From Candidatus Nealsonbacteria bacterium (GTDB taxonomy: Bacteria; Patescibacteriota; Minisyncoccia; Minisyncoccales; RBG-13-42-11), in NCBI GenBank assembly GCA_026396115.1, contig JAPLXL010000004.1:19805-83804 (forward strand): a stretch of 64,000 nt of DNA. Direction: 5' to 3'. How positions within the stretch are numbered: position 1 is the stretch's first letter; each line of letters opens with the position of its first letter. The notes beneath the pieces were generated by a model that was not told the DNA's origin, ran no database searches, and saw nothing but the letters and a program-made list of their open reading frames with translations. Below, piece by piece: positions 3,665 through 62,575 of the stretch. A program made the translations under genes and the position numbers.

Positions 3665-3666
3665 TA

Positions 3667-3723
3667 GGCGAAGAGGAATTCGTCCTCTTCTTCACCTTCG
3701 TTTTTATAAATAAAAACTCGGTA
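3667..3723 (+). repeat. GCPE repeat, full two-hairpin form
   Basis: GGCGAAGAGGAattcgTCCTCTTCTTCACCTTC-GTTTTTataaatAAAAAC-TCGGTA; ends 1 nt before ATG 3725 (CTCGGTATATG). Confidence 0.9.
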
Positions 3724-5898: not shown

Positions 5899-6576
5899 AT
5901 GATTTTAGATTGGGCAGATGTTACCATACTAGCTTTTCAAAATCTTTGGCAGGGATTTTTAAATTTTATTCCGGTTTTGATCGGGGCAATTATTGTCTTT
6001 GTCATTGGTTGGTTTATTTCCGTCGGAGTAGGCAAGTTAATTACCGAAATTTTAAAGAAAGCAAAATTTAATCAAATTTTTGAAAAAGGAGGATGGAAGA
6101 CGGCTCTGGCAAAAGCAGAAATTAAAGTTGATGCTTCGGGCTTTATTGGAGCTATTGTTAAATGGATTTTGGTTATTGTTTTTCTTTTGGCAGCAGTAGA
6201 AATTTTGGGCTTACCCCAGTTTGCTGATTTTTTAAAGGGTGTTTTGGGTTATCTTCCTAATGTTGTTGTAGCTTCCTTAATTTTTGTGGTGACGGTAATT
6301 GTGGTTGATATTGTTGAAAAACTGGTCAGAGCCTCAGTTGAAGGAATTAAGGTGGGATACGGTCAAGTGGTTAGCGCCATAGTAAGATGGTCAATCTGGA
6401 TTTTTGCTATTTTGGCTATTTTACATCAGTTAGGAATTGCCAGGCCATTTATGGAAATTTTGTTTACGGGTTTGGTAGCAATGCTGGTGATTTCTTTAGG
6501 AATTGCTTTTGGTTTGGGCGGAAAAGATGTGGCGGCTGAAATTTTACAGGATTTAAAAAGAAATCTGAAAGAATAA
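5899..6576 (+). CDS. Multi-pass membrane protein, mechanosensitive-channel-like conserved-TM-helix family
   Basis: 225 aa, repeated hydrophobic helices with short amphipathic connectors; family assignment from recall only. Confidence 0.55.
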   Translation: MILDWADVTILAFQNLWQGFLNFIPVLIGAIIVFVIGWFISVGVGKLITEILKKAKFNQIFEKGGWKTALAKAEIKVDASGFIGAIVKWILVIVFLLAAVEILGLPQFADFLKGVLGYLPNVVVASLIFVVTVIVVDIVEKLVRASVEGIKVGYGQVVSAIVRWSIWIFAILAILHQLGIARPFMEILFTGLVAMLVISLGIAFGLGGKDVAAEILQDLKRNLKE

Positions 6577-6622
6577 ATTTAATAATACTGTTTTTAAGTT
6601 CAAGATCCATACGGTGGGGGGC

Positions 6623-6650
6623 TTGACATAGTTTTTTATTTTGTTAAAAT
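6623..6650 (+). promoter_or_regulatory. Candidate sigma70-type promoter for the 23S-5S unit
   Basis: TTGACA (6623-6628) - 16 nt - TAAAAT (6645-6650), about 245 nt upstream of 23S; same architecture as the tRNA-Ala promoter. Confidence 0.5.
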
Positions 6651-6732
6651 TGATTTTAGATATGAGAAAAGTTAGAACAATTTTCGATAAAGGAAGCGGT
6701 TAATAATTCTGGGCATTTTTATGTCTTAGAAG

Positions 6733-6750
6733 TCGCTTCCTTGGAAGCGA
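6733..6750. repeat. GCPE SL2-like hairpin only (in 23S leader)
   Basis: TCGCTTCC-tt-GGAAGCGA followed by TTTTT; same arms as the common SL2. Confidence 0.4.
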
Positions 6751-7411
6751 TTTTTGATTGAAAAGATTGTTTCGGAAAGTTCGTTAAAAATTGAATAATT
6801 AAAACCGTAGAAGTAGAAAATATATATACCCATATTTTGTGGTTATTAATTACTAGCTCAGTGCAAGCCGGATTAATTTTTGGCTTGACTGGGCAATCAA
6901 AAAATTTTACAGGCGGATGGTGGATGCCTTGGAAGATTGAGGCGATGAAGGACGTGGCGTGTCTGCGATAAGCCTCGGGGAGGTGGTTAGCAACCTTTGA
7001 TCCGGGGATTTCCGAATGGGGAAACCCAACGCGAATCAACAACGCGTTACCGCGCTGCGAAACAGCGTGGAGCAAACCTGGGGAAGTGAAACATCTCAGT
7101 ACCCAGAGGAAAAGAAAACGAAGTTTAATTCCCTTAGTAGCGGCGAGCGAAAAGGGAAGAGCCCAAACCTGCCAGTGCTTTGCACTCGTAGGGGTTGTAA
7201 GTTGGATATGTCCCAGAGCAATCTGGGCAGAGCTTTATAAAAATGTGATTTGGCTAGACGAAGGTTCCTGGAAAGGACAGCCAAAGAGAGTAATAGCCTC
7301 GTAGTCGAAAGTCATCACATGCTCTGAGTATCTATACTTGAGTATCCCGAGAAATGATAACCTTGGGAGAAACAAGCCGGACTAACCGGCTAAGGCTAAA
7401 TACTCAATCTT

Positions 7412-7452
<41 letters not shown>

Positions 7453-9576
7453 GGGAGGTGATCCCGGTGAAATAGAACCTGAAACCATCTCGCTTACAAA
7501 GAGTCAGAGCCGAGCACATAATTTATTATGTGCTTCGGTGATGGCGTGCTTTTTGTAGAACGAGCCAACGAGTCCTCGCTCTTTCTTTGTCTAAGCGGTT
7601 TTGCCGCGAAGGCAAAGGGAAACCAAGTCTTAATAGGGCGTCTCTCGGTTTTTCCGAGAAGAGAAAGAGCAAGGGACCCGAAGCCAAGCGAGCTTGCCAT
7701 GGCCAGGGTGAATTCCGCAGAAATGCGGGAGGAGGCCCGAACCCGTGAGCCGTTCAACACTCTGGGATGAGCTGTGGTAAGAAGTGAAAAGCTAATCGAG
7801 CTTGGTAATAGCTGGTTCTCCCCGAAATAGCTTTAGGGCTAGCCCGAGCAATTACCTACAGGGGTAGAGCACTGAATGGAATATCGTGGGTTTTACCTAG
7901 GTAATCCAATCAAACTCCGAATACTGTAGGTCAGAGCATATATTTTATGTGCTTTGATATATGCTCGGAGTTAGACTGTGGGGGCTAAGCTCCATGGTCA
8001 AAAGGGAAACAGCCCAGATCTTCATCTAAGGTCCCTAAACTAAGCTAAGTGTTTTGAAGGAAGTGAGACACCTGAGATAGTTAGGAGGTTAGCTTAGAAG
8101 CAGCTATCCTTTAAAAAGTGCGTAATAGCTTACTAACTAAGGAGTTTCGCGCCGAAGATTTATCGGGGCTAAGCTTAGTACCGAAGATAAGGGAACGTAC
8201 AATTTGCTTTGCAAATGTTACGTTCGGTAGGGGAGCGTTCTCTTCGCAGCGAAGTTAAACCGTGAGGTTTGATGGAGCGGAGAGAAGTGAGAATGTTGGC
8301 ATGAGTAACCGCAATGCCGCTGAGATAGCGGCACACCGAAAACCCAAGGTTTCCTTGGCAATGACAATCAGCCAAGGGTTAGGCGGTCCTTAGTCCAAAA
8401 CCGAAAGGTCAGGATGATGGACAGCCGGTTAATATTCCGGCCCCCGAGCACATAATCCAAAGAGGGGACGAAGTCTAGTAGTTTGGGCGAGTTATCGGAT
8501 TCTCGTTGTTAACCTAAGAATTTTCAAGGGTTAGCAAAATGCTTTGATTCTTCAAGGCAAATTCAAATAAGCAGGCTTCCCAGAAAAGCCTCAAAGGAAT
8601 TTAATTATGTGCTTGGTCCGTACCGCAAAACCGACACAGGTGGGTTGGTGTAAATGCACCAAGGTGAACGGGTGAAACCTCGTTAAGGAACTCGGCAAAA
8701 AAGTGGTCGTAAGTTCGCAATAAGACTTCTGAGCATATAAGTTTTATGTGCTCGGCGCAGCGAAAGTACCCCTGGCGACTGTTTACCAAAAACACAGGTC
8801 CCTGCTTAATTCGTAAGAAGATGTATAGGGGCTGAGGCCTGACCAGTGCTGGAACGTTAACGTCGCCGGTCTCATCGCAAGGTGAGGCTGAGTGACCGAA
8901 GCGCCAGTGAACGTCGGCGGTAACTATAACCGTCTTAAAGTACCGTAATCCCTTGCCAGGTAAGTTCTGGCCCGCAGGAAAGGTTTAACGACTGGGGGAC
9001 TGTCTCAACGAGGAGCCCGGTGAAAACGCAATACCGGTAAAGATGCCGGTTACCTACGGCTAGACGGAAAGACCCCGGGAGCTTTACTGTAGTTAAATAT
9101 TGAATTTTGGTTTTGAATGCGTAGCGTAGCGGGTAGGCTTTGAAGTGTCGTTTTCGGACGGCATGGAGCCGCCAATGAAACACCCGTCTTTTAAAATCTT
9201 TATTCTAACTCTGCTAAAAGCGGAAAACAGTGTTTAATGGGCAGTTTAAGTGGGGCGCTTGCCTCCTAAAAGGTAACGGAGGCGTTTATTAAGGTCGGCT
9301 AGGCACGGATGGAAATCGTGCTCGTCGTGTAAAGGCACAAGCCGGCTTGACTGCAAGAGGGATAACTCACGCAGGCACGAAAGTGGAACTTAGTGAACCG
9401 ACGGATTTTTGTAGAAAATCCGAAGATCATCAACTAAAAGCTACCCCGGGGATAACAGGCTAGTAGGGCCCGCGAGTTCATATCAACGGCCCTGTTCGGC
9501 ACCTTAACATATCGGGGTGCTATAGTAGTAATGCTATATCTCGCTTAAGGCGGGACGAAAAAACTGACTTATAACG

Positions 9577-9774
9577 GTGAAATCCATATGTTATAATATA
9601 TATATGGACAATACCGTGGGAAGTTTAACTCAATTTCAAAAATCGATAATCATAGGATCAATTTTAGGAGATGGGTATTTAAGAATTATTTCTGGCAGAA
9701 ATAATGCCTTTTTAGAAATAAATATTAATCCGGTGATTTTATCGATTTGGTTTATGGATGACGGAAGCAAATAA
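9577..9774 (+). pseudogene. Decayed LAGLIDADG homing endonuclease ORF inside intron 1
   Basis: 65-aa ORF keeps IIGSILGDGYL and WFMDDGSK motifs, but the sequence between them and the C-terminal half are missing. Confidence 0.7.
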
Positions 9775-9869
9775 TGAAATATAAATTGGGTTATAACCCC
9801 GTAGAGACTTGCTCAAAATGAGCAGATGAAAATAAAATTTTCATAATACGTCAGCCCCACCAAGGTTAG

Positions 9870-9924
9870 CTCGAAGAAGCTACGCTTCTTCTCGACCTTC
9901 GCTTTTGCTTCGCAAAAGCTCGGT
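9870..9924 (+). repeat. GCPE repeat, full form, inside intron 1 (P8-equivalent hairpin)
   Basis: CTCGAAGAAGCtacGCTTCTTCTCGACCTTC-GCTTTTGCttcGCAAAAGC-TCGGT between AATACGTC and GATATAGTCC; intron 2 has a plain hairpin here. Confidence 0.85.
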
Positions 9925-10068
9925 GGGTGAAGATATAGTCCGATCCTCCTTGTAAAAGGAGAAAAATACCGACAGCGATGTCGGCTCATCTCATCCTGGG
10001 GGTGAAGCAGCTCCCAAGGGTTTGGCTGTTCGCCAATTAAAGAGGTACGTGAGCTGGGTTCAAACCGT

Positions 10069-10388
10069 GGTTCCAATTTGGAACAGGCGGCCTCATTGGG
10101 CAATCAATGAGTGCAAAAACCCCGCACCAAAACTTTTAGTTTGATACGGGGTAAACCGACTAATATCGGTGAAGTCCATAGAAATTCTTTCAACCTGTAT
10201 TTCTATGGATAATACCGAGGCAAGTCCAATTTAAAAAGTTGGATGAGCCGTAGAGACTTTTCGCCGCAGAGGCGAAAGATGGAAGTTAACCTTCCATAAT
10301 ACGTCGGTCCCCTAAACCCGGTTGCTAAAAGCAACTTAGGGTCGGGTGGTGATATAGTCCATACATTTAGTAATAAGTGAAGTATATG
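10069..10388 (+). mobile_element. Group I intron 2 in 23S (approx. E. coli 2593, I-CreI-type site), ORF-less
   Basis: Splits GGGTTCAAACCGT|CGTAAGACAGGTTGG; 5' exon ends in T, insert ends in G; shares CCGTAGAGACTT..AATACGTC..GATATAGTCC core with intron 1. Confidence 0.85.
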
Positions 10389-10706
10389 CGTAAGACAGGT
10401 TGGTCCCTATCTACCGTAGGCGTTGAGTCTTGAGGGGGGTTCTCACTAGTACGAGAGGATCGTGAGGAACTGACCTCTGGTCTACCAGCTGTTCCACCAG
10501 GAGCATTGCTGGGTAGCTAAGTCGGGAACTGATAAGTGCTGAAAGCATCTAAGCGCGAAGCAGGCCCCAAGATTAGGACTCTTAGATTCCCCGCAGATTA
10601 CGGGGTTGATAGGCTGCAGGTGTAAGTGCAGTAATGCATTCAGCCGAGCAGTACTAATAAATCATTGATTTTTTGTTGCCCAATTAAACTGGGCTAGTAA
10701 TTAATG

Positions 10707-10762
10707 ACCGAGCCCCGCAATAGCGTGGCGAGGGGGAAGAAGAAAACTTTGTTTTCTTTGCC
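10707..10762 (-). repeat. GCPE repeat, variant full form, in 23S-5S spacer
   Basis: ACCGAG-CCCCGcaataCGTGG-CGAGGGGGAAGAAGAAAACtttGTTTTCTTTGCC. Confidence 0.7.
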
Positions 10763-10896: not shown

Positions 10897-10911
10897 AGCG
10901 CCTTTTGAGGT

Positions 10912-10974
10912 CAAAGAGGGCAGAGCCCTCTTTTCACACCCTTTACCCCTCACCAATGGTGAGGGGCTTGGGTA
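10912..10974 (+). repeat. GCPE-like variant just after 5S (may double as terminator)
   Basis: AAGAGGGcagaGCCCTCTTTTCACACCCTTTA-CCCCTCACCaaTGGTGAGGGG-CTTGGGTA; SL1 followed by T-run. Confidence 0.6.
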
Positions 10975-10996: not shown

Positions 10997-11093
10997 ACCG
11001 AGCTTCCGAAGGAAGCGAAGGTGAAGAAGAGTGCGAAGAAAAGCGCTTCTTCTTTCGTCTCGTCTTTGACTCGACGGACGAAGTCCTCTTCGA
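10997..11093 (-). repeat. GCPE repeat, long form with ~50-bp inner module
   Basis: ACCGAGCTTCCgaaGGAAGCGAAGGTGAAGAAGAGTGCGAAGAAAAGcgcTTCTTCTTTCGTCTCGTCTTTGACTCGACGGACGAAGTCCTCTTCGAC; enclosed by 12-bp inverted repeat AAAAAATCACCC (10978-10989) / GGGTGATTTTTT (11097-11108). Confidence 0.88.
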
Positions 11094-11118
11094 CTTGGGT
11101 GATTTTTTAGATTACAAT

Positions 11119-11304
11119 TTATTCAATATCTTTACCCCAATCTTCCTCTTCTTCTTCTTCCTCCTCCTCCTCCTCTTCTTCTTCTTCTTCTTTCTCTTCC
11201 TCTTTTTCTTCATCTTCATCTGCTTCTAAGTCATCTTCAAGTCCGAAAAGCTCTTCTTCGATTTCTTGACAAACCGGGGAGACAAAAAGTTTATCTTTCG
11301 TCAT
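11119..11304 (-). CDS. Small acidic poly-Glu protein (uncertain)
   Basis: 61-aa ORF, ATG start; more than half Glu/Asp, encoded by a long GAA/GAG tract (about 11141-11225). Confidence 0.3.
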   Translation of the reverse strand: MTKDKLFVSPVCQEIEEELFGLEDDLEADEDEEKEEEKEEEEEEEEEEEEEEEEDWGKDIE

Positions 11305-11338: not shown

Positions 11339-11409
11339 ACCGAGGCGACCTTGGCGAAAAGGGTTTTATCCTCTTCTTTACTTTCGTCCTGCTGCGTGCG
11401 GGACTCGGT
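11339..11409 (+). repeat. GCPE repeat, degenerate/composite
   Basis: Starts ACCGAG and ends CTCGGT; TTATCCTCTTCTTTACTTTC-GTCCtgctgcgtgcGGGAC-TCGGT. Confidence 0.6.
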
Positions 11410-12404: not shown

Positions 12405-12766
12405 AGAAAATTATATTTTTTATTCTTATTTTTTATGTCCTAACTTTAATTCAGACCAGCTTTTTGGTTCATTTTAATGTATCAGGAGTTATTCCTAATC
12501 TTGTATTAATTACTGTAATTTTTATTAATCTTTTACCAGAGTCGCAGCGAAGGGTGAAGAACAGGATTTATTCTCTTCGACTTAGTTCTTCCTGGCTGCA
12601 GAAAATATCCTCTGCCGTTATCGGCGGATTTTATCTGGATATTTTCTCACTAAATAATATGGGGGGATTCTTTGGATTTTATACTTTAATTTTGACGGGA
12701 TTTTCCTTTTTATTAAAAACTATTTTAGAAAGATATGTTAGAATTCCTATCATTCAAAAAATTTAA
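12398..12766 (+). CDS. mreD: Rod shape-determining protein MreD (with repeat-derived insert)
   Basis: Small polytopic membrane protein between mreC and PBP2; overlaps both neighbours. Confidence 0.55.
   Translation: MVKKIIFFILIFYVLTLIQTSFLVHFNVSGVIPNLVLITVIFINLLPESQRRVKNRIYSLRLSSSWLQKISSAVIGGFYLDIFSLNNMGGFFGFYTLILTGFSFLLKTILERYVRIPIIQKI
12535..12581 (-). repeat. GCPE repeat, partial (linker+SL1), in frame in mreD
   Basis: ACCAGAGTCGCAGCGAAGGGTGAAGAACAGGAtttaTTCTCTTCGAC, read as PESQRRVKNRIYSLRL. Confidence 0.7.
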
Positions 12767-14855
12767 AAGACGAAGAGTACTTCGTCCGTCGAGTCAAATA
12801 CGAGACGAAAGAAGAAAAACTTTTCTTCGCACTCTTCTTCACATTCGCTTCCATAAATGGAAACTCGGTAACAGAAGAATTCAACTCGCTTTTAAGGAAG
12901 ACATTGAGCCTCACGAGATTCTTTTGGATTCTCTTGCCGAAAAAAAAGAAAAAGAGTTGGGCCTTTCGGAAAAGAAATTTGAAGTCCCTCTTCTAAAAAG
13001 AATTATCCAAAGTTTTTTTATTTTTTGTTTTTTTATAATATTGTTTCTTTTTTTTAAAACCTTTCAACTTCAGGTGGTTGAAGGAAAAAATTTTATCCAA
13101 CTGGCAGAGAGAAATAAATTTATCATTCACCATATTCAGGCGGAGAGAGGAGTTATTTATGATAAAAACTTAGAACAATTGGTTTTTAACAAATCAACAT
13201 TTGATTTAATTTGCGAAAAAAGTAAGATTCCTCAAGATGAAGCCGAGAAAGAAAGAATTTTACAACAAGTTTCAAAGTTTCTTGAAAAAGACGTTAAAGA
13301 GCTAAAAAAAGAAATCGACGAATCTGAATCCGATCAAGTTTTGATTGCTAAAAATCTTTCTCATCAGGAATTAATTTTATTTGAAACAAGAATTGACGAG
13401 TTCCTGGGCTTCCAAATAAAAAACAATGTTATCAGAGAATATAGAGATGGTGAAGTTTTTAGCCAGATTATCGGCTATACGGGAAAAATAAAAAGCGAAG
13501 AATTTGAGGCAGCCCCCGAATTTTATTTAATTAATGATTATGTTGGTAGAACCGGCGTAGAAAATTTTTACGAAAGATTTTTGAGAAAAAATCCTGGAAA
13601 ATTAAGAATTGAAAGAGATGTTTTTGAAAACGTAATTTCCAAAGAAGTTGTTTCTCTGCCAGAATCCGGAAAGAGTTTGGTTTTGTGGTTGGATGCCGAT
13701 TTGCAGAGAAAGACAGAAGAAGAATTGGAAAAAAAATATAAAGAAATTGGAGCCAAAGGAGCAATAGCCATAGCCATGGATCCCAAAACCGGCGGCATAT
13801 TATCTTTGGTTTCTCTACCCAGTTTTGATAATAATTTATTCCAAAAGGGAGCTGACCAAAAATCTCTTCAAGCTCTTTTGGAAGATTCTCAAAATCTTAA
13901 TTCGCTCTTCGACCGAGCGATTTCCGGAAGATATCTGACGGGTTCAACCATAAAACCCTTAATTGCTTCAGCCGCTCTTGAAGAAAAAATAATTAATCCT
14001 GATGAAAAAATTAATTGTCAGGGGCTGATAGAGGTTGAACACACCTATACATCTGAAACCACTGAATTTCTCGACTGGACAGTGCACGGCTGGACGGATT
14101 TAAGAAAAGCCATTGCTGAATCTTGTAACGTTTACTTTTATACAGTAGGAGGAGGATATAAAGAACAAGAAGGTTTGGGACCGACCAAAATTAAAGAATA
14201 CTTAGAACTTTTTGGCTGGGGGGAGAAGACCGGTATTGATCTTCCTGGCGAAATTAATGGTTTTATTCCCGATAAAGAATGGAAAAAAAGAGTTTTAGGA
14301 GAAGGTTGGTGGGATGGTAACACTTATAATCTTTCAATCGGCCAGGAATATCTTCAAATTACTCCCTTGGAAGTGGTGACTAGTTTTTCAGCCATTGCTA
14401 ATGGCGGAAAATTGCTTCAGCCTCAAGTGGTTAAAGAAATAATTACTACTTCAGGCACCTCAACTGAAGTTTCAGTAGTCGAAGAAGATTTATCTTCTTC
14501 TTCACCCTTCGCTGCGGCTCGGGTAGTTAAGGAATTTGAGCCAGAAATTATTAGAGAAAACTTTATTGATCCTGGAAATCTTCAAATTGTTAGGGAGGGA
14601 ATGAGGCAGGCAGTAACCGGACAAAATTCTCCTCTGGCCTCGTCCGTAATATTGAATTCCTTGCCCATAGCTGTTGCCGCCAAAACCGGGACAGCCGAAT
14701 TGGGAGGAGATAGATATCATAACTGGGTTACTGTTTTTGCGCCTTACGAAGATCCGGAAATTGTTTTAACGGTGATGATTGAAGATGTTAAAGGCGTTCA
14801 GGCAGCTGTCTTGCCCGTGGCCAAAGCAATTTTAGAATGGTATTTTACTAAATAA
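12735..14855 (+). CDS. mrdA: Penicillin-binding protein 2 (elongasome transpeptidase)
   Basis: 706 aa; TM helix then PBP dimerisation and transpeptidase domains (STIKP = SxxK, KTGTAE = KTG); mreCD neighbours; two repeat inserts. Confidence 0.87.
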   Translation: MLEFLSFKKFKRRRVLRPSSQIRDERRKTFLRTLLHIRFHKWKLGNRRIQLAFKEDIEPHEILLDSLAEKKEKELGLSEKKFEVPLLKRIIQSFFIFCFFIILFLFFKTFQLQVVEGKNFIQLAERNKFIIHHIQAERGVIYDKNLEQLVFNKSTFDLICEKSKIPQDEAEKERILQQVSKFLEKDVKELKKEIDESESDQVLIAKNLSHQELILFETRIDEFLGFQIKNNVIREYRDGEVFSQIIGYTGKIKSEEFEAAPEFYLINDYVGRTGVENFYERFLRKNPGKLRIERDVFENVISKEVVSLPESGKSLVLWLDADLQRKTEEELEKKYKEIGAKGAIAIAMDPKTGGILSLVSLPSFDNNLFQKGADQKSLQALLEDSQNLNSLFDRAISGRYLTGSTIKPLIASAALEEKIINPDEKINCQGLIEVEHTYTSETTEFLDWTVHGWTDLRKAIAESCNVYFYTVGGGYKEQEGLGPTKIKEYLELFGWGEKTGIDLPGEINGFIPDKEWKKRVLGEGWWDGNTYNLSIGQEYLQITPLEVVTSFSAIANGGKLLQPQVVKEIITTSGTSTEVSVVEEDLSSSSPFAAARVVKEFEPEIIRENFIDPGNLQIVREGMRQAVTGQNSPLASSVILNSLPIAVAAKTGTAELGGDRYHNWVTVFAPYEDPEIVLTVMIEDVKGVQAAVLPVAKAILEWYFTK
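12769..12870 (+). repeat. GCPE repeat, long form, in frame in the PBP2 N-terminal tail
   Basis: GACGAAGAGTACTTCGTCCGTCGAGTCAAATACGAGACGAAAGAAGAAAAACTTTTCTTCGCACTCTTCTTCACATTC-GCTTCCataaatGGAAAC-TCGGTA; near-identical to the reverse complement of 10997-11093. Confidence 0.9.
14478..14524 (+). repeat. GCPE repeat, short form, in frame in PBP2
   Basis: GTCGAAGAAGAtttaTCTTCTTCTTCACCCTTCGCTGCGGCTCGGGT, read as VEEDLSSSSPFAAARV. Confidence 0.88.
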
Positions 14856-35596: not shown

Positions 35597-35866
35597 TTGC
35601 TTATGTTAACAAAAATAAAACAGTTTGTCAAAACTTATCAAACCGACATCATTTTAGTGATTGGCGTTGTTTTAATTTCTTTGCTTTCTTTTGCCATGGG
35701 TTATATTGTAGCAAAACAGCAAGAAAAGGAACCCATTAAAATTGAAAAAGGAGTTGAAGAAGAGTCCTTCTTCTCCACCTTCGCTTTCGCTACGCGAAAG
35801 CTCGATAGTCGAAGAGAGCTTCGCTCTCTTCTTTACCTTCGCTTCCTGCGGAAGCTCGGTGTATGA
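35597..35866 (+). CDS. Small membrane protein; C-terminal half is read-through of two repeats
   Basis: TM helix [22 protein letters not shown]; from about residue 52 the frame runs through repeats 35753-35861 with no stop until 35866. Confidence 0.4.
35753..35807 (+). repeat. GCPE repeat, full form (first of head-to-tail pair)
   Basis: GTTGAAGAAGAGtcCTTCTTCTCCACCTTC-GCTTTCGCtaCGCGAAAGC-TCGATA. Confidence 0.9.
35808..35861 (+). repeat. GCPE repeat, full form (second of pair)
   Basis: GTCGAAGAGAGCttcGCTCTCTTCTTTACCTTC-GCTTCCtgcGGAAGC-TCGGTG; 1 nt before ATG 35863. Confidence 0.9.
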
Positions 35867-38055: not shown

Positions 38056-38135
38056 GCTCAATGAATATAAAATTCATTTCGCCTTTGAGCTCAATGAATA
38101 TAAAATTCATTTCGCCTTCGATATTGATTCGGCTA
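38056..38135 (+). repeat. GCPE-architecture variant with TGAAT arms, SL1 unit duplicated in tandem
   Basis: GCTCAATGAATATAAAATTCATTTCGCCT occurs twice (38056-38084, 38088-38116), then TCGATATTGATTCGGCTA tail; overlaps the 3' end of gene 38107..38625. Confidence 0.65.
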
Positions 38136-38625
38136 TAGAAAGCCATTTTTGGCCCTGAATCTTCTTAATTTTGTATTTTTGCATTATTTTCTGTATTTCT
38201 ATTAATTGCAGAAAATCTTCTTTTTTCCATTCTTTAATTGCTTTTCCTTTGTTTTGAAAAAGGATTTCGATGGCTTTGCTCCACCATTCAGAATTCTGTT
38301 TTCTGTTTCCGGACAAGTCATATTCCTTGAAAAAGGGAATTACTTTATTGTAAAGATCGTCAATGCTTTGAACGGAATATCTGATTTTGTTTTCACCGAC
38401 AAAATGAAGCAGGCCGCAATTAAGAGAATTTTGGATTTTTCTTAATAAATCTTCATCTTTATATTTTCCCATAACCACAAACTGAGCTTTCCATCCATAA
38501 TAAACGGGACGATTGGTTCTTTTATATTTAACATCCCTTCTAAACTGCAAGTCAAAACAACCTTGACTATTTATAAAATCAATAATTTGTTTTTTTGATG
38601 ATATTTTTTCTTTTGCTTTGTTCAT
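38107..38625 (-). CDS. Free-standing LAGLIDADG-type endonuclease-like protein
   Basis: IIDFINSQGCF (compare GFxDxEGCF), later VIPFFKEYDLSGNRKQNSEWWSKAI (compare IPFFxKYxLxGxKxxDF); the acidic residue before G is Gln. Confidence 0.6.
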   Translation of the reverse strand: MNKAKEKISSKKQIIDFINSQGCFDLQFRRDVKYKRTNRPVYYGWKAQFVVMGKYKDEDLLRKIQNSLNCGLLHFVGENKIRYSVQSIDDLYNKVIPFFKEYDLSGNRKQNSEWWSKAIEILFQNKGKAIKEWKKEDFLQLIEIQKIMQKYKIKKIQGQKWLSIAESISKAK

Positions 38626-39921: not shown

Positions 39922-40278
39922 TTACTTTATCAATTCTTTAAATTTTTCCCACAAAGATTTACCGGTTTTCGGTACTTCTGTTTTTAATTCTTCTTTCATT
40001 TCTTCTTTTTCCCCTTCAAACCCTTCTTTTAAAATATCTTTTCTTTTTTCAATTTCCGGCCTTATCCAGTTTTCAACTCTGGACCAAATATTTACTTTGA
40101 ACCAATCCCACATTTTCTGCCAAATTGGCAGGATTTCTTCTTTCACGAACTTTCGCACAGCGAAAGCGAAGGTGGAGAAGAAGGAATCTTCTTCGACCCA
40201 GGTTTCTTCGACTTGGCCAAAAGAAAAATTAGGCAACAAAACACCAACCATTATTGAAATTACTATTATGTTCTTCAT
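39922..40278 (-). CDS. Small secreted Trp/Lys/Glu-rich protein with repeat-derived segment
   Basis: Signal-like N-terminus MKNIIVISIMVGVLLPNFSFG; residues about 28-45 ([17 protein letters not shown]) encoded by repeat 40145-40197. Confidence 0.5.
   Translation of the reverse strand: MKNIIVISIMVGVLLPNFSFGQVEETWVEEDSFFSTFAFAVRKFVKEEILPIWQKMWDWFKVNIWSRVENWIRPEIEKRKDILKEGFEGEKEEMKEELKTEVPKTGKSLWEKFKELIK
40145..40197 (-). repeat. GCPE repeat, full form, in frame in small ORF
   Basis: ACGAACTTTCGCacaGCGAAAGCGAAGGTGGAGAAGAAGGAatCTTCTTCGAC. Confidence 0.88.
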
Positions 40279-40280
40279 AT

Positions 40281-40337
40281 ACCGAACTTTCGCGCAGTGA
40301 AAGCGAAGGTGAAGAAGAAAACGAAGTTTTCTTCGCC
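40281..40337 (-). repeat. GCPE repeat, full form
   Basis: ACCGAACTTTCGCgcaGTGAAAGCGAAGGTGAAGAAGAAAACgaaGTTTTCTTCGCC; 2 nt from ATG at 40278 (GTTCGGTATATG on gene strand). Confidence 0.9.
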
Positions 40338-40338
40338 T

Positions 40339-46200: not shown

Positions 46201-46830
46201 CTACTTTGAATAAAATGCAAAAATTGACGAGAGTTCTGCTGGAGAGGCAGCCTCTTCTAAATTTGGTGAAATTGTGACCTTTCCCTCTAAGTTCTTGATA
46301 TCTAATTCTAGCCAAGATGGAAGATTATGTTTTTTTAAAAGGGTGGGCAATTTTTGAAAGATGGTTTTTTTTGCGGAACCGGGGTTAATACTAATTTTGT
46401 CGCCTTTTTTAACCAAATAACCGGGGATATTAATTGGTTCATTATTTATCATAAAATGGCGATGGGAAACCATTTGACGGGCAGCAGTTCTAGAGGGAGC
46501 AAATCCAAATCTAAAAACTACATTATCTAAACGACTCTCTAATATCTTAATCAAAGCTGCTTCGGCATCCACGACTTTACCTCGCGCTTTTAAGATTTCT
46601 TTTACATATTTCCGCAATTGTCTTTCTTCTAAATTATACCAATTTTTTAATTTCTGCTTTTCTCTTAACTCTTTACCATATTCAGAAAGAGCCCTTGCTC
46701 TTCTTTTTGCTTTGGGACCGGGCGGATAAGGTTTTCTTATCATCGGACATTTCTGCGATAAGCACTTCTCTCCTCGCAAAAAAAGCTTTATTCCTAATCG
46801 ACGACAAATTTTACATTTAGAATCTTTCAT
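46201..46830 (-). CDS. rpsD: 30S ribosomal protein S4
   Basis: Start moved to ATG 46830 (MKDSKCKICRRLG..); Zn-ribbon Cys, S4 domain. Confidence 0.94.
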   Translation of the reverse strand: MKDSKCKICRRLGIKLFLRGEKCLSQKCPMIRKPYPPGPKAKRRARALSEYGKELREKQKLKNWYNLEERQLRKYVKEILKARGKVVDAEAALIKILESRLDNVVFRFGFAPSRTAARQMVSHRHFMINNEPINIPGYLVKKGDKISINPGSAKKTIFQKLPTLLKKHNLPSWLELDIKNLEGKVTISPNLEEAASPAELSSIFAFYSK

Positions 46831-46832
46831 AT

Positions 46833-46888
46833 ACCGAGCTTCCATTTATGGAAGCGAAGGTGAAGAAGAGGACGAAGTCCTCTTCGCC
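46833..46888 (-). repeat. GCPE repeat, full form (rpsK-rpsD spacer)
   Basis: ACCGAGCTTCCatttatGGAAGCGAAGGTGAAGAAGAGGAcgaagTCCTCTTCGCC; CTCGGTATATG junction with rpsD. Confidence 0.93.
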
Positions 46889-46891
46889 AAT

Positions 46892-47744: not shown

Positions 47745-47861
47745 TTATCCTTGTCTTTGTTTATGTTTTGGGTTTTTTTTGCAAATAACATAAATTCGTC
47801 CCCTTCTGCGGACGATTTTACAATTTTTACAAATTTTCTTTATCGATGACCTAACTTTCAT
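47745..47861 (-). CDS. rpmJ: 50S ribosomal protein L36
   Basis: Not in ORF track (38 aa); hand translation [38 protein letters not shown]. Confidence 0.92.
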
Positions 47862-47863
47862 AT

Positions 47864-47920
47864 ACCGAGCTTTCGCGCAGCGAAAGCGAAGGTGAAGAAG
47901 AAAACGAAGTTTTCTTCGCC
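47864..47920 (-). repeat. GCPE repeat, full form (infA-rpmJ spacer)
   Basis: ACCGAGCTTTCGCgcaGCGAAAGCGAAGGTGAAGAAGAAAACgaaGTTTTCTTCGCC; CTCGGTATATG junction with rpmJ; extra half-site ATCGAGCTTT at 47922-47931. Confidence 0.93.
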
Positions 47921-47941
47921 TATCGAGCTTTATTTCTTTGA

Positions 47942-62270: not shown

Positions 62271-62507
62271 TTATCCTTGAGGCGAAGAGGACTTCGTCCT
62301 CTTCTTCACCTTCGCTCCGCTGCCGTGGAGCTCGGTTAATAAAGTTAATATTTGGGCGATTTCTTTTTTAACCTTGCGGATTTCTCTGACATTTTTTACT
62401 TTTCCTGTTATCAAATCAAATCTAAGCTGTCTTAATTTTTCTCGATCATCTCTTAAGATCTTTTGAATTTCTTCTTTAGATTTTCTGCGCAATTCGTCAA
62501 TTTTCAT
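62271..62507 (-). CDS. rpmC: 50S ribosomal protein L29 with repeat-derived C-terminal extension
   Basis: L29 helical hairpin (ELRRKSKEEI..LRQLRFDL..); last about 19 aa (LHGSGAKVKKRTKSSSPQG) encoded by repeat 62281-62336. Confidence 0.9.
   Translation of the reverse strand: MKIDELRRKSKEEIQKILRDDREKLRQLRFDLITGKVKNVREIRKVKKEIAQILTLLTELHGSGAKVKKRTKSSSPQG
62281..62336 (+). repeat. GCPE repeat, full form, forming the rpmC 3' end
   Basis: GGCGAAGAGGActtcgTCCTCTTCTTCACCTTC-GCTCCgctgccgtGGAGC-TCGGT. Confidence 0.9.
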
Positions 62508-62509
62508 AA

Positions 62510-62563
62510 ACCGAGTCCCGTTTACGGGACGAAGGTGAAGAAGAGAACGAAGTCCTCTTCGCC
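62510..62563 (-). repeat. GCPE repeat, full form (rplP-rpmC spacer)
   Basis: ACCGAGTCCCGtttaCGGGACGAAGGTGAAGAAGAGAACGAAGTCCTCTTCGCC; CTCGGTTTATG junction with rpmC. Confidence 0.9.
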
Positions 62564-62575
62564 TTATAACTTATT

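Follow-up and report, generated by a model that had tools for sequence, protein, structure and literature searches.

The window, which is the whole 64-kb stretch of DNA analysed here, is gene-dense bacterial sequence of 33-45% GC with dense bacterial ORFs and two tRNAs only. It carries a 23S rRNA gene that contains two group I introns and is followed downstream by a 5S rRNA gene, with no 16S rRNA found nearby by Rfam. Group I introns with LAGLIDADG ORFs are common in the rRNA genes of CPR bacteria, where they are IA-type, often carry such ORFs and cluster around the 23S peptidyl-transferase centre (PMC11270868, PMC13011429). Both introns of the window fit this description (IA-type, peptidyl-transferase-centre cluster). 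Among the matches listed from our GTDB and metagenome scans, the relatives recovered were exclusively Patescibacteria/CPR MAGs or metagenome contigs. A green-algal chloroplast origin, which introns at L2500 and L2593 could suggest, was rejected on the grounds of the dense bacterial ORFs, the two tRNAs and these CPR relatives. The features of the 23S rRNA gene are as follows.

6898 to 10677, plus strand: 23S rRNA gene with two group I introns (Rfam RF02541, 2184 bits)
9505 to 9975, plus strand: intron 1, group IA, inserted after E. coli U2500 (RF00028, exon alignment, U and omega-G splice sites)
9604 to 9774, plus strand: LAGLIDADG homing-endonuclease ORF in the P6 loop, reduced to a 56-aa remnant (by comparison with the intact 201-aa ORF in the same intron of L125)
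9856 to 9861, plus strand: P8 5' strand CCCACC (Rfam alignment, MFE fold, pair counts)
9862 to 9868, plus strand: linker AAGGTTA(GC), conserved in intron-borne class A cassettes (cassette alignment, MFE fold, pair counts)
9869 to 9924 (start 9869 or 9871), plus strand: element copy in P8 (nhmmer; termini from filled versus empty sites)
9922 to 9927, plus strand: P8 3' strand GGTGGG (Rfam alignment, MFE fold, pair counts)
9928 to 9941, plus strand: J8/7 and 3' strand of P7 (TGAAGATATAGTCC), intact (Rfam alignment)
10069 to 10388, plus strand: intron 2, at L2593, without an ORF (exon alignment, splice sites, RF00028)

Intron 1 matched RF00028 over the full model (positions 1-253) with 43.6 bits (E 1.4e-9, span 9495-9962). 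The gathering score is 50, and the shortfall is attributable to the long P6 and P8 inserts. Excising 9505-9975 in silico restored the conserved 23S sequence. The 5' exon ends in U and the last intron base is G, in the context GGCACCU/UAAC...GGGGUGC at the 5' splice site and ...GACAG/CGAUGUCGGC at the 3' splice site (slashes mark the sites), so that the exon-end U, the guide-sequence G and the terminal G are all in place. P7.1 and P7.2, GCUCAAAAUGAGC and GAAAAUAAAAUUUUC, lie between AGACUU and AAUACGUC, as in group IA introns. The MFE fold of the full 471-nt intron contained P2, P2.1, P3, P4-P6, P7.1, P7.2 and P9.

Intron 2 scored 43.2 bits against the same model (E 1.8e-9, span 10051-10380; gathering score 50). 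As originally predicted, the two introns share their core, with CCGTAGAGACTT, CATAATACGTC and GATATAGTCC common to both, and P8 of intron 2 (10309-10346) is a simple stem-loop. This intron is missing from the contigs L121 and L125, which represent a sister genome with syntenic flanks and a 23S rRNA 95% identical to that of the window; it was therefore gained or lost very recently.

A two-hairpin element in P8 of intron 1

The hairpin that holds the insert had been proposed to be P8. The Rfam alignment agreed, placing the insert between P3' (ACGUCAG) and GAAGAUAUAGUC, outside the catalytic core, with P3, J8/7, P7 and the basal P8 stem untouched. The inserted copy consists of hairpin 1 (9873-9891, GAAGAAGC-TAC-GCTTCTTC), the conserved linker ACCTTCGC (9895-9902), hairpin 2 (9901-9919, GCTTTTGC-TTC-GCAAAAGC) and the 3' end GCTCGGT. 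An nhmmer profile built from 18 other copies of a repeat dispersed through the window recognised it with 44.8 bits (E 4.4e-13, profile positions 5-65), in keeping with the claim that the element is complete. Its exact 54-mer is unique in the window, where 0 matches are expected by chance. The original prediction also described the element as enclosed by the stem CCCACC/GGTGGG. The stem is real, but GGT at 9922-9924 belongs both to the element and to the P8 3' strand. With the P8 stem and the linker AAGGTTAGC, the two hairpins form a unit of 73 nt, hereafter the P8 cassette.

Folded alone, the P8 region reached -33.9 kcal/mol (z -4.3) and formed the basal stem with a Y-shaped extension. In this predicted structure, AAGGUU/GACCUU closes hairpin 1 and is followed by hairpin 2; the AAGGTT of the linker would thus pair with bases 9894-9899 (GACCTT). 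The same Y-shaped extension was present in the MFE structure when the intron was folded in full.

In homologous U2500 introns, the distance from P3' to J8/7 ranges from 24 to 104 nt (a motif-anchored measure, among the matches listed). The length of P8 is therefore free to vary, as expected from the proposal that this helix tolerates insertions. In group I introns, terminal loops such as that of P8 accept large inserts with splicing kept, as exemplified by the ORF of the omega intron in L8. Whereas those peripheral-loop inserts are ORFs, the insert described here is a non-coding dispersed repeat, and the endonuclease ORF remnant of the same intron lies in the P6 loop. In about half of the U2500 IA introns listed (L001-L120), P8 is long (59-104 nt), branched and conserved, of a TCTTG...CAAGA type; this second kind of P8 elaboration is unrelated to the cassette.

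The dispersed two-hairpin family

A search with nhmmer yielded 50 non-overlapping family matches (E<=1e-3) in the 64-kb window. This corresponds to about one copy per 1.3 kb, including copies within genes and the one in the rRNA intron. The 18 aligned copies follow the pattern (G/T)CGAAGAG..-loop-..CTCTTC-TTYACCTTCGC-(variable hairpin)-GCTCGGT. The P8 copy has every part of it, namely hairpin 1 (GAAGA.../...TCTTC), the linker ACCTTCGC, a variable hairpin 2 and GCTCGGT, and is thus a full-length member. Comparison of filled sites in the window with empty sites in L125 set the termini of the family as G(G/T)CGAAG...CTCGGT. The copies to which the text refers are listed below.

10703 to 10762, minus strand: element copy in the 23S-5S spacer, common to L125 (nhmmer, L125 comparison)
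10909 to 10973, plus strand: diverged element copy directly after the 5S rRNA; the L125 site is empty (L125 comparison)
10997 to 11094, minus strand: composite 98-nt element copy in the loop of the hairpin AAAAAATCACCC/GGGTGATTTTTT, 3' of the 5S rRNA (L125 comparison)
11352 to 11409, plus strand: element copy without target-site duplication; the L125 site is empty (L125 comparison)
14476 to 14516, plus strand: short-form element copy in frame in the PBP2-like ORF 12735-14855, aa 581-594, VVEEDLSSSSPFAA (tblastn)

Three window copies (10909-10973, 10997-11094 and 11352-11409) are precisely missing from L125, and none of these filled versus empty sites showed a target-site duplication of 2 nt or more. 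The terminator-like hairpin AAAAAATCACCC/GGGTGATTTTTT, whose loop holds the composite copy in the window, is empty and intact in L125. The spacer at 3665-3723 consists of the element from end to end, and L125 has an unrelated spacer at the same place. Within the PBP2-like ORF, tblastn showed that the short-form copy corresponds to an insertion of 13-21 aa relative to the orthologues in L128 and L134, and the reading frame is kept. The PBP2 orthologue in L122 carries an independent copy on the opposite strand (L122 1931-1988) only a few residues away, where it encodes ASEGSEGEDENEVL. The three filled and empty sites and the in-frame PBP2 insertion bear out the view that the family is inserted DNA. 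Within the approximately 12 kb that could be compared, five window copies are missing from L125, and the compared stretch holds two dispersed copies in L125 versus about seven in the window. The family thus appears to have been recently active in the window lineage.

We rejected a MITE model, as the two ends of the element, GGCGAAG... and ...GCTCGGT, do not form inverted repeats and the three filled and empty sites lack target-site duplications. A Pfam scan of 10 small ORFs of the 64-kb window detected no transposase, including no Y1_Tnp domain, and no viral contig matched the element or the P8 pattern.

Many copies are followed by a start codon (ATG, GTG or TTG) exactly 3 nt after the terminal CTCGGT; in the window, these include the copies at 3665-3723, 35806-35866, 40276-40338, 46827-46890, 47858-47922 and 62505-62565. 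Several intergenic spacers consist of the element alone. The element may supply or replace 5' UTRs.

The P8 cassette in other introns

We scanned GTDB for U2500 introns and obtained at least 120 loci. Among these, L034, a GTDB MAG, has an intron core about 64% identical to that of the window and carries the element in P8 with the same flanks. Metagenomes were searched with a pattern in which ACCTTCGC is followed by TGAAGATATAGTCC 15-45 nt further on, so that ACCTTCGC, spacing, orientation and J8/7 were fixed. The search returned 17 contigs; in all but one (16/17), the element lay in P8 of a group I intron, and these introns comprised at least 10 distinct variants. The uniform orientation and junction among these matches are partly built in, because the pattern fixed both.

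The cassette of the window is identical in L121/L125 and similar in L137 (97%), L127 (90%), L133 (84%), L122 (82%) and L034 (77%). Across other CPR U2500 introns, cassette identity is 76-97%, against 50-84% for the remaining intron sequence. Between the window and L127, the cassette is 90% identical and the core 61-63%, whereas between L034 and L127 the cassette is 73% and the core 83-87% identical. Within the same introns, the cassette is more conserved than P2, P7.1, P7.2 and P9. Cassettes differ mainly by compensatory changes: among seven of class A, 97.4% of cells form pairs, and four pairs (10 cells) have changed on both sides. Shuffling never reached these values (0/500 shuffles), and sliding the partners reduced pairing to 36-59%.

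In neighbour-joining trees of these short alignments, class-A intron copies formed a group that excluded every dispersed copy, even the ones from the same hosts. The hairpin-1 types of L034 and L123/L124 grouped with dispersed copies in the same analysis. Some re-insertion or gene conversion is therefore indicated as well, and inheritance would not be the whole story. A related cassette also occurs outside the 23S rRNA gene: L123 and L135 have a group I intron (RF00028, 47 bits) close to the 16S rRNA 3' end, and its P8 holds a class-B element copy. In L135 (1632-2852, also in L123), this 3' end carries a compound insertion with matches resembling group II D1-D4, a LAGLIDADG ORF and the group I intron.

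Dispersed copies were absent, even at E<=1, from the flanks of about 5-11 kb around the introns of L034, L127, L134 and L132, and none was found at E<=1e-3 in the other 119 GTDB loci listed. Within the few kb sampled per host, some cassette-bearing introns thus have few or no dispersed copies around them. In the window lineage, the P8 copy appears older than most dispersed copies, because it is kept in L125, where most window copies of the compared stretch are missing. The U2500 intron of L125 combines the cassette with an intact 201-aa LAGLIDADG ORF.

A relative without the element was found in L076, a Ca. Nealsonbacteria MAG whose 23S rRNA is 77% identical to that of the window. Its U2500 intron (6366-6851), which contains a run of N, matches the window intron essentially base for base except in the ORF remnant and P8. 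The two introns share an ORF-deletion junction, AAATAAAT/ATTAATCC, and one P7.2 variant, both missing in L125, and both lack the homing endonuclease. An already degenerate intron was apparently transferred horizontally between hosts with 77% 23S identity. The P8 of L076 (6790-6825) is simple, CCCCTAACCATATTGCAAAGGCAATGTAGGGAGGG, and unrelated to the cassette. In a manual alignment, it is about 79% identical to P8 of the L2593 intron of the window (10309-10346), and no other similar P8 was found among the 137 loci listed. This suggests a P8 swap between neighbouring introns at conserved flanks. Since the window and L076 share the derived ORF-deletion junction, the L076 intron descends from the window-type lineage. 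With the cassette present in both the window and L125, the simple P8 of L076 is then most parsimoniously a replacement or loss rather than an ancestral empty site. The same intron without the element, which the original prediction had proposed to look for in relatives, therefore does exist, but its polarity points to loss.

We considered whether L076 might be an assembly chimera and rejected this, as both intron halves are joined to L076-type exons that differ from those of the window. The resemblance of GGTTAG in the window to an inverted CTAACC in L076 is a 6-mer coincidence.

The original prediction that the element invaded the intron at this locus was not supported. The cassette is identical in L121/L125, 97% identical in L137 and represented by a related copy in the 16S intron; the hairpin is ancestral for this intron lineage, though not for all U2500 introns. 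The P8 segment is a true copy of the dispersed repeat, and we consider it probable, while short of certain, that it is an old cassette inherited with the homing intron and probably exchanged between introns. Long ago, a family member may have entered or converted the P8 loop of some U2500 intron. The cassette would then have been inherited as the intron homed between CPR lineages, and it was probably also swapped by recombination at its flanks, AATACGYC on the 5' side and GAAGATATAGTCC on the 3' side. In the RNA, the basal P8 stem would be retained and the insert is predicted to fold on itself as a Y of two hairpins and a short closing stem. P3, J8/7 and P7 would stay free, so that the ribozyme should still be able to fold, and the insert would be excised from the rRNA along with the intron. 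That intron 1 is competent to splice, and that the cassette would be neutral, we infer solely from conservation and from the location of the insertion site at an essential point of the peptidyl-transferase centre.

The conservation of the cassette complicates this last point. Because it exceeds that of P2, P7.1, P7.2 and P9, a purely neutral passenger is an inadequate description, leaving selection or very recent spread. The original view that an extra hairpin in P8 is harmless is doubtful for the same reason, since no other peripheral part of the intron is as well conserved as the cassette. The P8 extension could instead be functional, as a folding aid or a protein platform that also recognises the dispersed copies, or the dispersed family could have been seeded from the intron cassette, with the intron as vehicle. 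Such a role would agree with the single-stranded linkers AAGGTTAGC, ACCTTCGC and GCTCGGT, which are nearly invariant while the stems vary by compensation. It would also agree with the presence of the cassette in hosts with no dispersed copies seen nearby, with the P8 copy of the window lineage predating most dispersed copies and with the existence of cassette-bearing introns that have intact LAGLIDADG ORFs. However, most U2500 introns listed have a simple P8, and L076 appears to have lost the cassette. Both hairpin loops are unconserved, making a tetraloop-receptor role unlikely, and the dispersed family is the more diverse, with the intron copies lying off its centre (few kb per host sampled). 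We regard a functional or seeding role as unlikely. It is likewise unlikely, in our judgement, that the cassette is a selected RNA module carried by homing introns and bound by a dispersed-copy factor, with the intron as vehicle or source; if it were, a self-splicing intron and a genome-wide repeat like the Rickettsia palindromic elements (RPE) would be linked in one mobile system.

The shared cassettes could also be convergent, if site-specific insertion recurred in IA introns, either in the loop of P8 or where P8 meets J8/7, through a cue such as GGGUGAAGAU, which resembles GGCGAAGAG, the 5' end of the element, or the flank that the element prefers. P8 holds at least three hairpin-1 types (class A, L034 and L123/L124), and the 3' junction GCTCGGT/GGRTGAAG is common to the types, the 16S intron included. 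The 3' flanks of dispersed copies have the consensus NNN-TGAAG in the same register, and another copy occupies the loop of the hairpin after the 5S rRNA. Against this, the cassettes have in common the linker CCAYCRAKGTTAGC on the 5' side, beyond the element boundary that the filled and empty sites define; the TGAAG motif is missing from the three polymorphic sites; the TGAAG enrichment comes largely from tandem neighbours and from start codons followed by AAR; and the junction was partly imposed by the search pattern. Convergence by site-specific insertion is, in our assessment, quite unlikely. Target mimicry, in which GGGUGAAGAU of J8/7 would look like the 5' end or the 3' flank of the element, is a minor possibility, as the TGAAG enrichment is mostly explained otherwise and three sites lack the motif.

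A recent jump of a dispersed copy into P8 in the window genome, with the intron as one more random landing site, appears very unlikely. The recent activity of the family, with five window copies missing from L125 in about 12 kb, and the element-free intron of L076 both speak for such a jump. Against it, L121/L125 have the P8 copy in identical form and L137 has it at 97% identity; the copy is among the few common to the sister genome and groups with other intron copies. Moreover, it has no close match among the window copies, its hairpin 2 (GCTTTTGC/GCAAAAGC) is found nowhere else in the window, and the polarity of L076 suggests loss. Finally, that an ordinary long P8 merely resembles the repeat by chance has a negligible probability: the low complexity of the GAAGA/TCTTC arms is all that speaks for it, and the match at E 4.4e-13 extends over the full profile with both conserved linkers and the two-hairpin order present.

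Comparison with known systems

Hairpin repeats of mitochondria include the fungal double-hairpin elements and the mobile GC clusters, the latter found in var1 and rRNAs (PMC2800124), as well as repetitive hairpin-forming elements in sponges (see also PMC4478555). Like the element here, they are short, self-folding and palindromic, lie between genes and are tolerated in rRNA genes, introns and ORFs. They also occupy unimportant structural positions, with stems kept by compensation and loops free. The host here is a CPR bacterium rather than an organelle, and the likeness is one of description. With this qualification, the phenomenon can be regarded as a bacterial counterpart of mitochondrial hairpin elements in introns, rRNAs and ORFs. 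Its added feature is the conserved, probably exchangeable P8 cassette; a conserved cassette common to many introns and hosts is something for which we found no description among the mitochondrial elements.

Among bacterial repeats, RPE are interspersed palindromic repeats of a reduced genome with intergenic and in-frame protein-coding copies (PMC1779305). The PBP2 copy is likewise an in-frame insertion in a gene. RPE measure 100-150 bp, whereas the element here has about 55-60 nt and two hairpins, and their host is unrelated, so the comparison is again by description. REP/BIME sequences, which are mobilised by RAYT and tagged by GTAG, resemble the family in being short palindromes that are often in tandem and mostly extragenic (compare PMC3733652). 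The motif (A/G)TAG precedes many copies here, yet it lies outside the 5' boundary G(G/T)CGAAG set by the filled and empty sites. To our knowledge, no REPs lie in frame within ORFs. A search by term found no mention of repeats or palindromes in the CPR intron surveys (PMC11270868, PMC13011429), and our literature search found no paper linking CPR/Patescibacteria with palindromic or dispersed repeats.

CPR genomes are very small and streamlined, yet a selfish-looking hairpin repeat is abundant in this one. A bacterial group I intron can evidently hold a dispersed repeat as a stable, structured peripheral domain, and this P8 domain would be exchangeable or losable as a unit between near-identical introns of hosts whose 23S rRNAs are only 77% identical. 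The sharing of one sequence between the intron periphery and genome-wide repeats across many lineages provides a natural experiment on the tolerance or recruitment of extra domains by ribozymes, and small repeats might pass from genome to genome in this way. In CPR metagenomes, both the cassette and the repeat will also mislead binning and the annotation of rRNAs and introns.

Elsewhere in the window, the minus strand has a free-standing ORF of 172 aa at 38107-38625, outside the rRNA genes, in which a LAGLIDADG_1 domain was recognised (E 4.6e-13). A CT-rich tract (CTTCTTCCTCC...) at about 11150-11260 differs in length between the window and L125; read on the minus strand, it probably codes for a low-complexity acidic tail.
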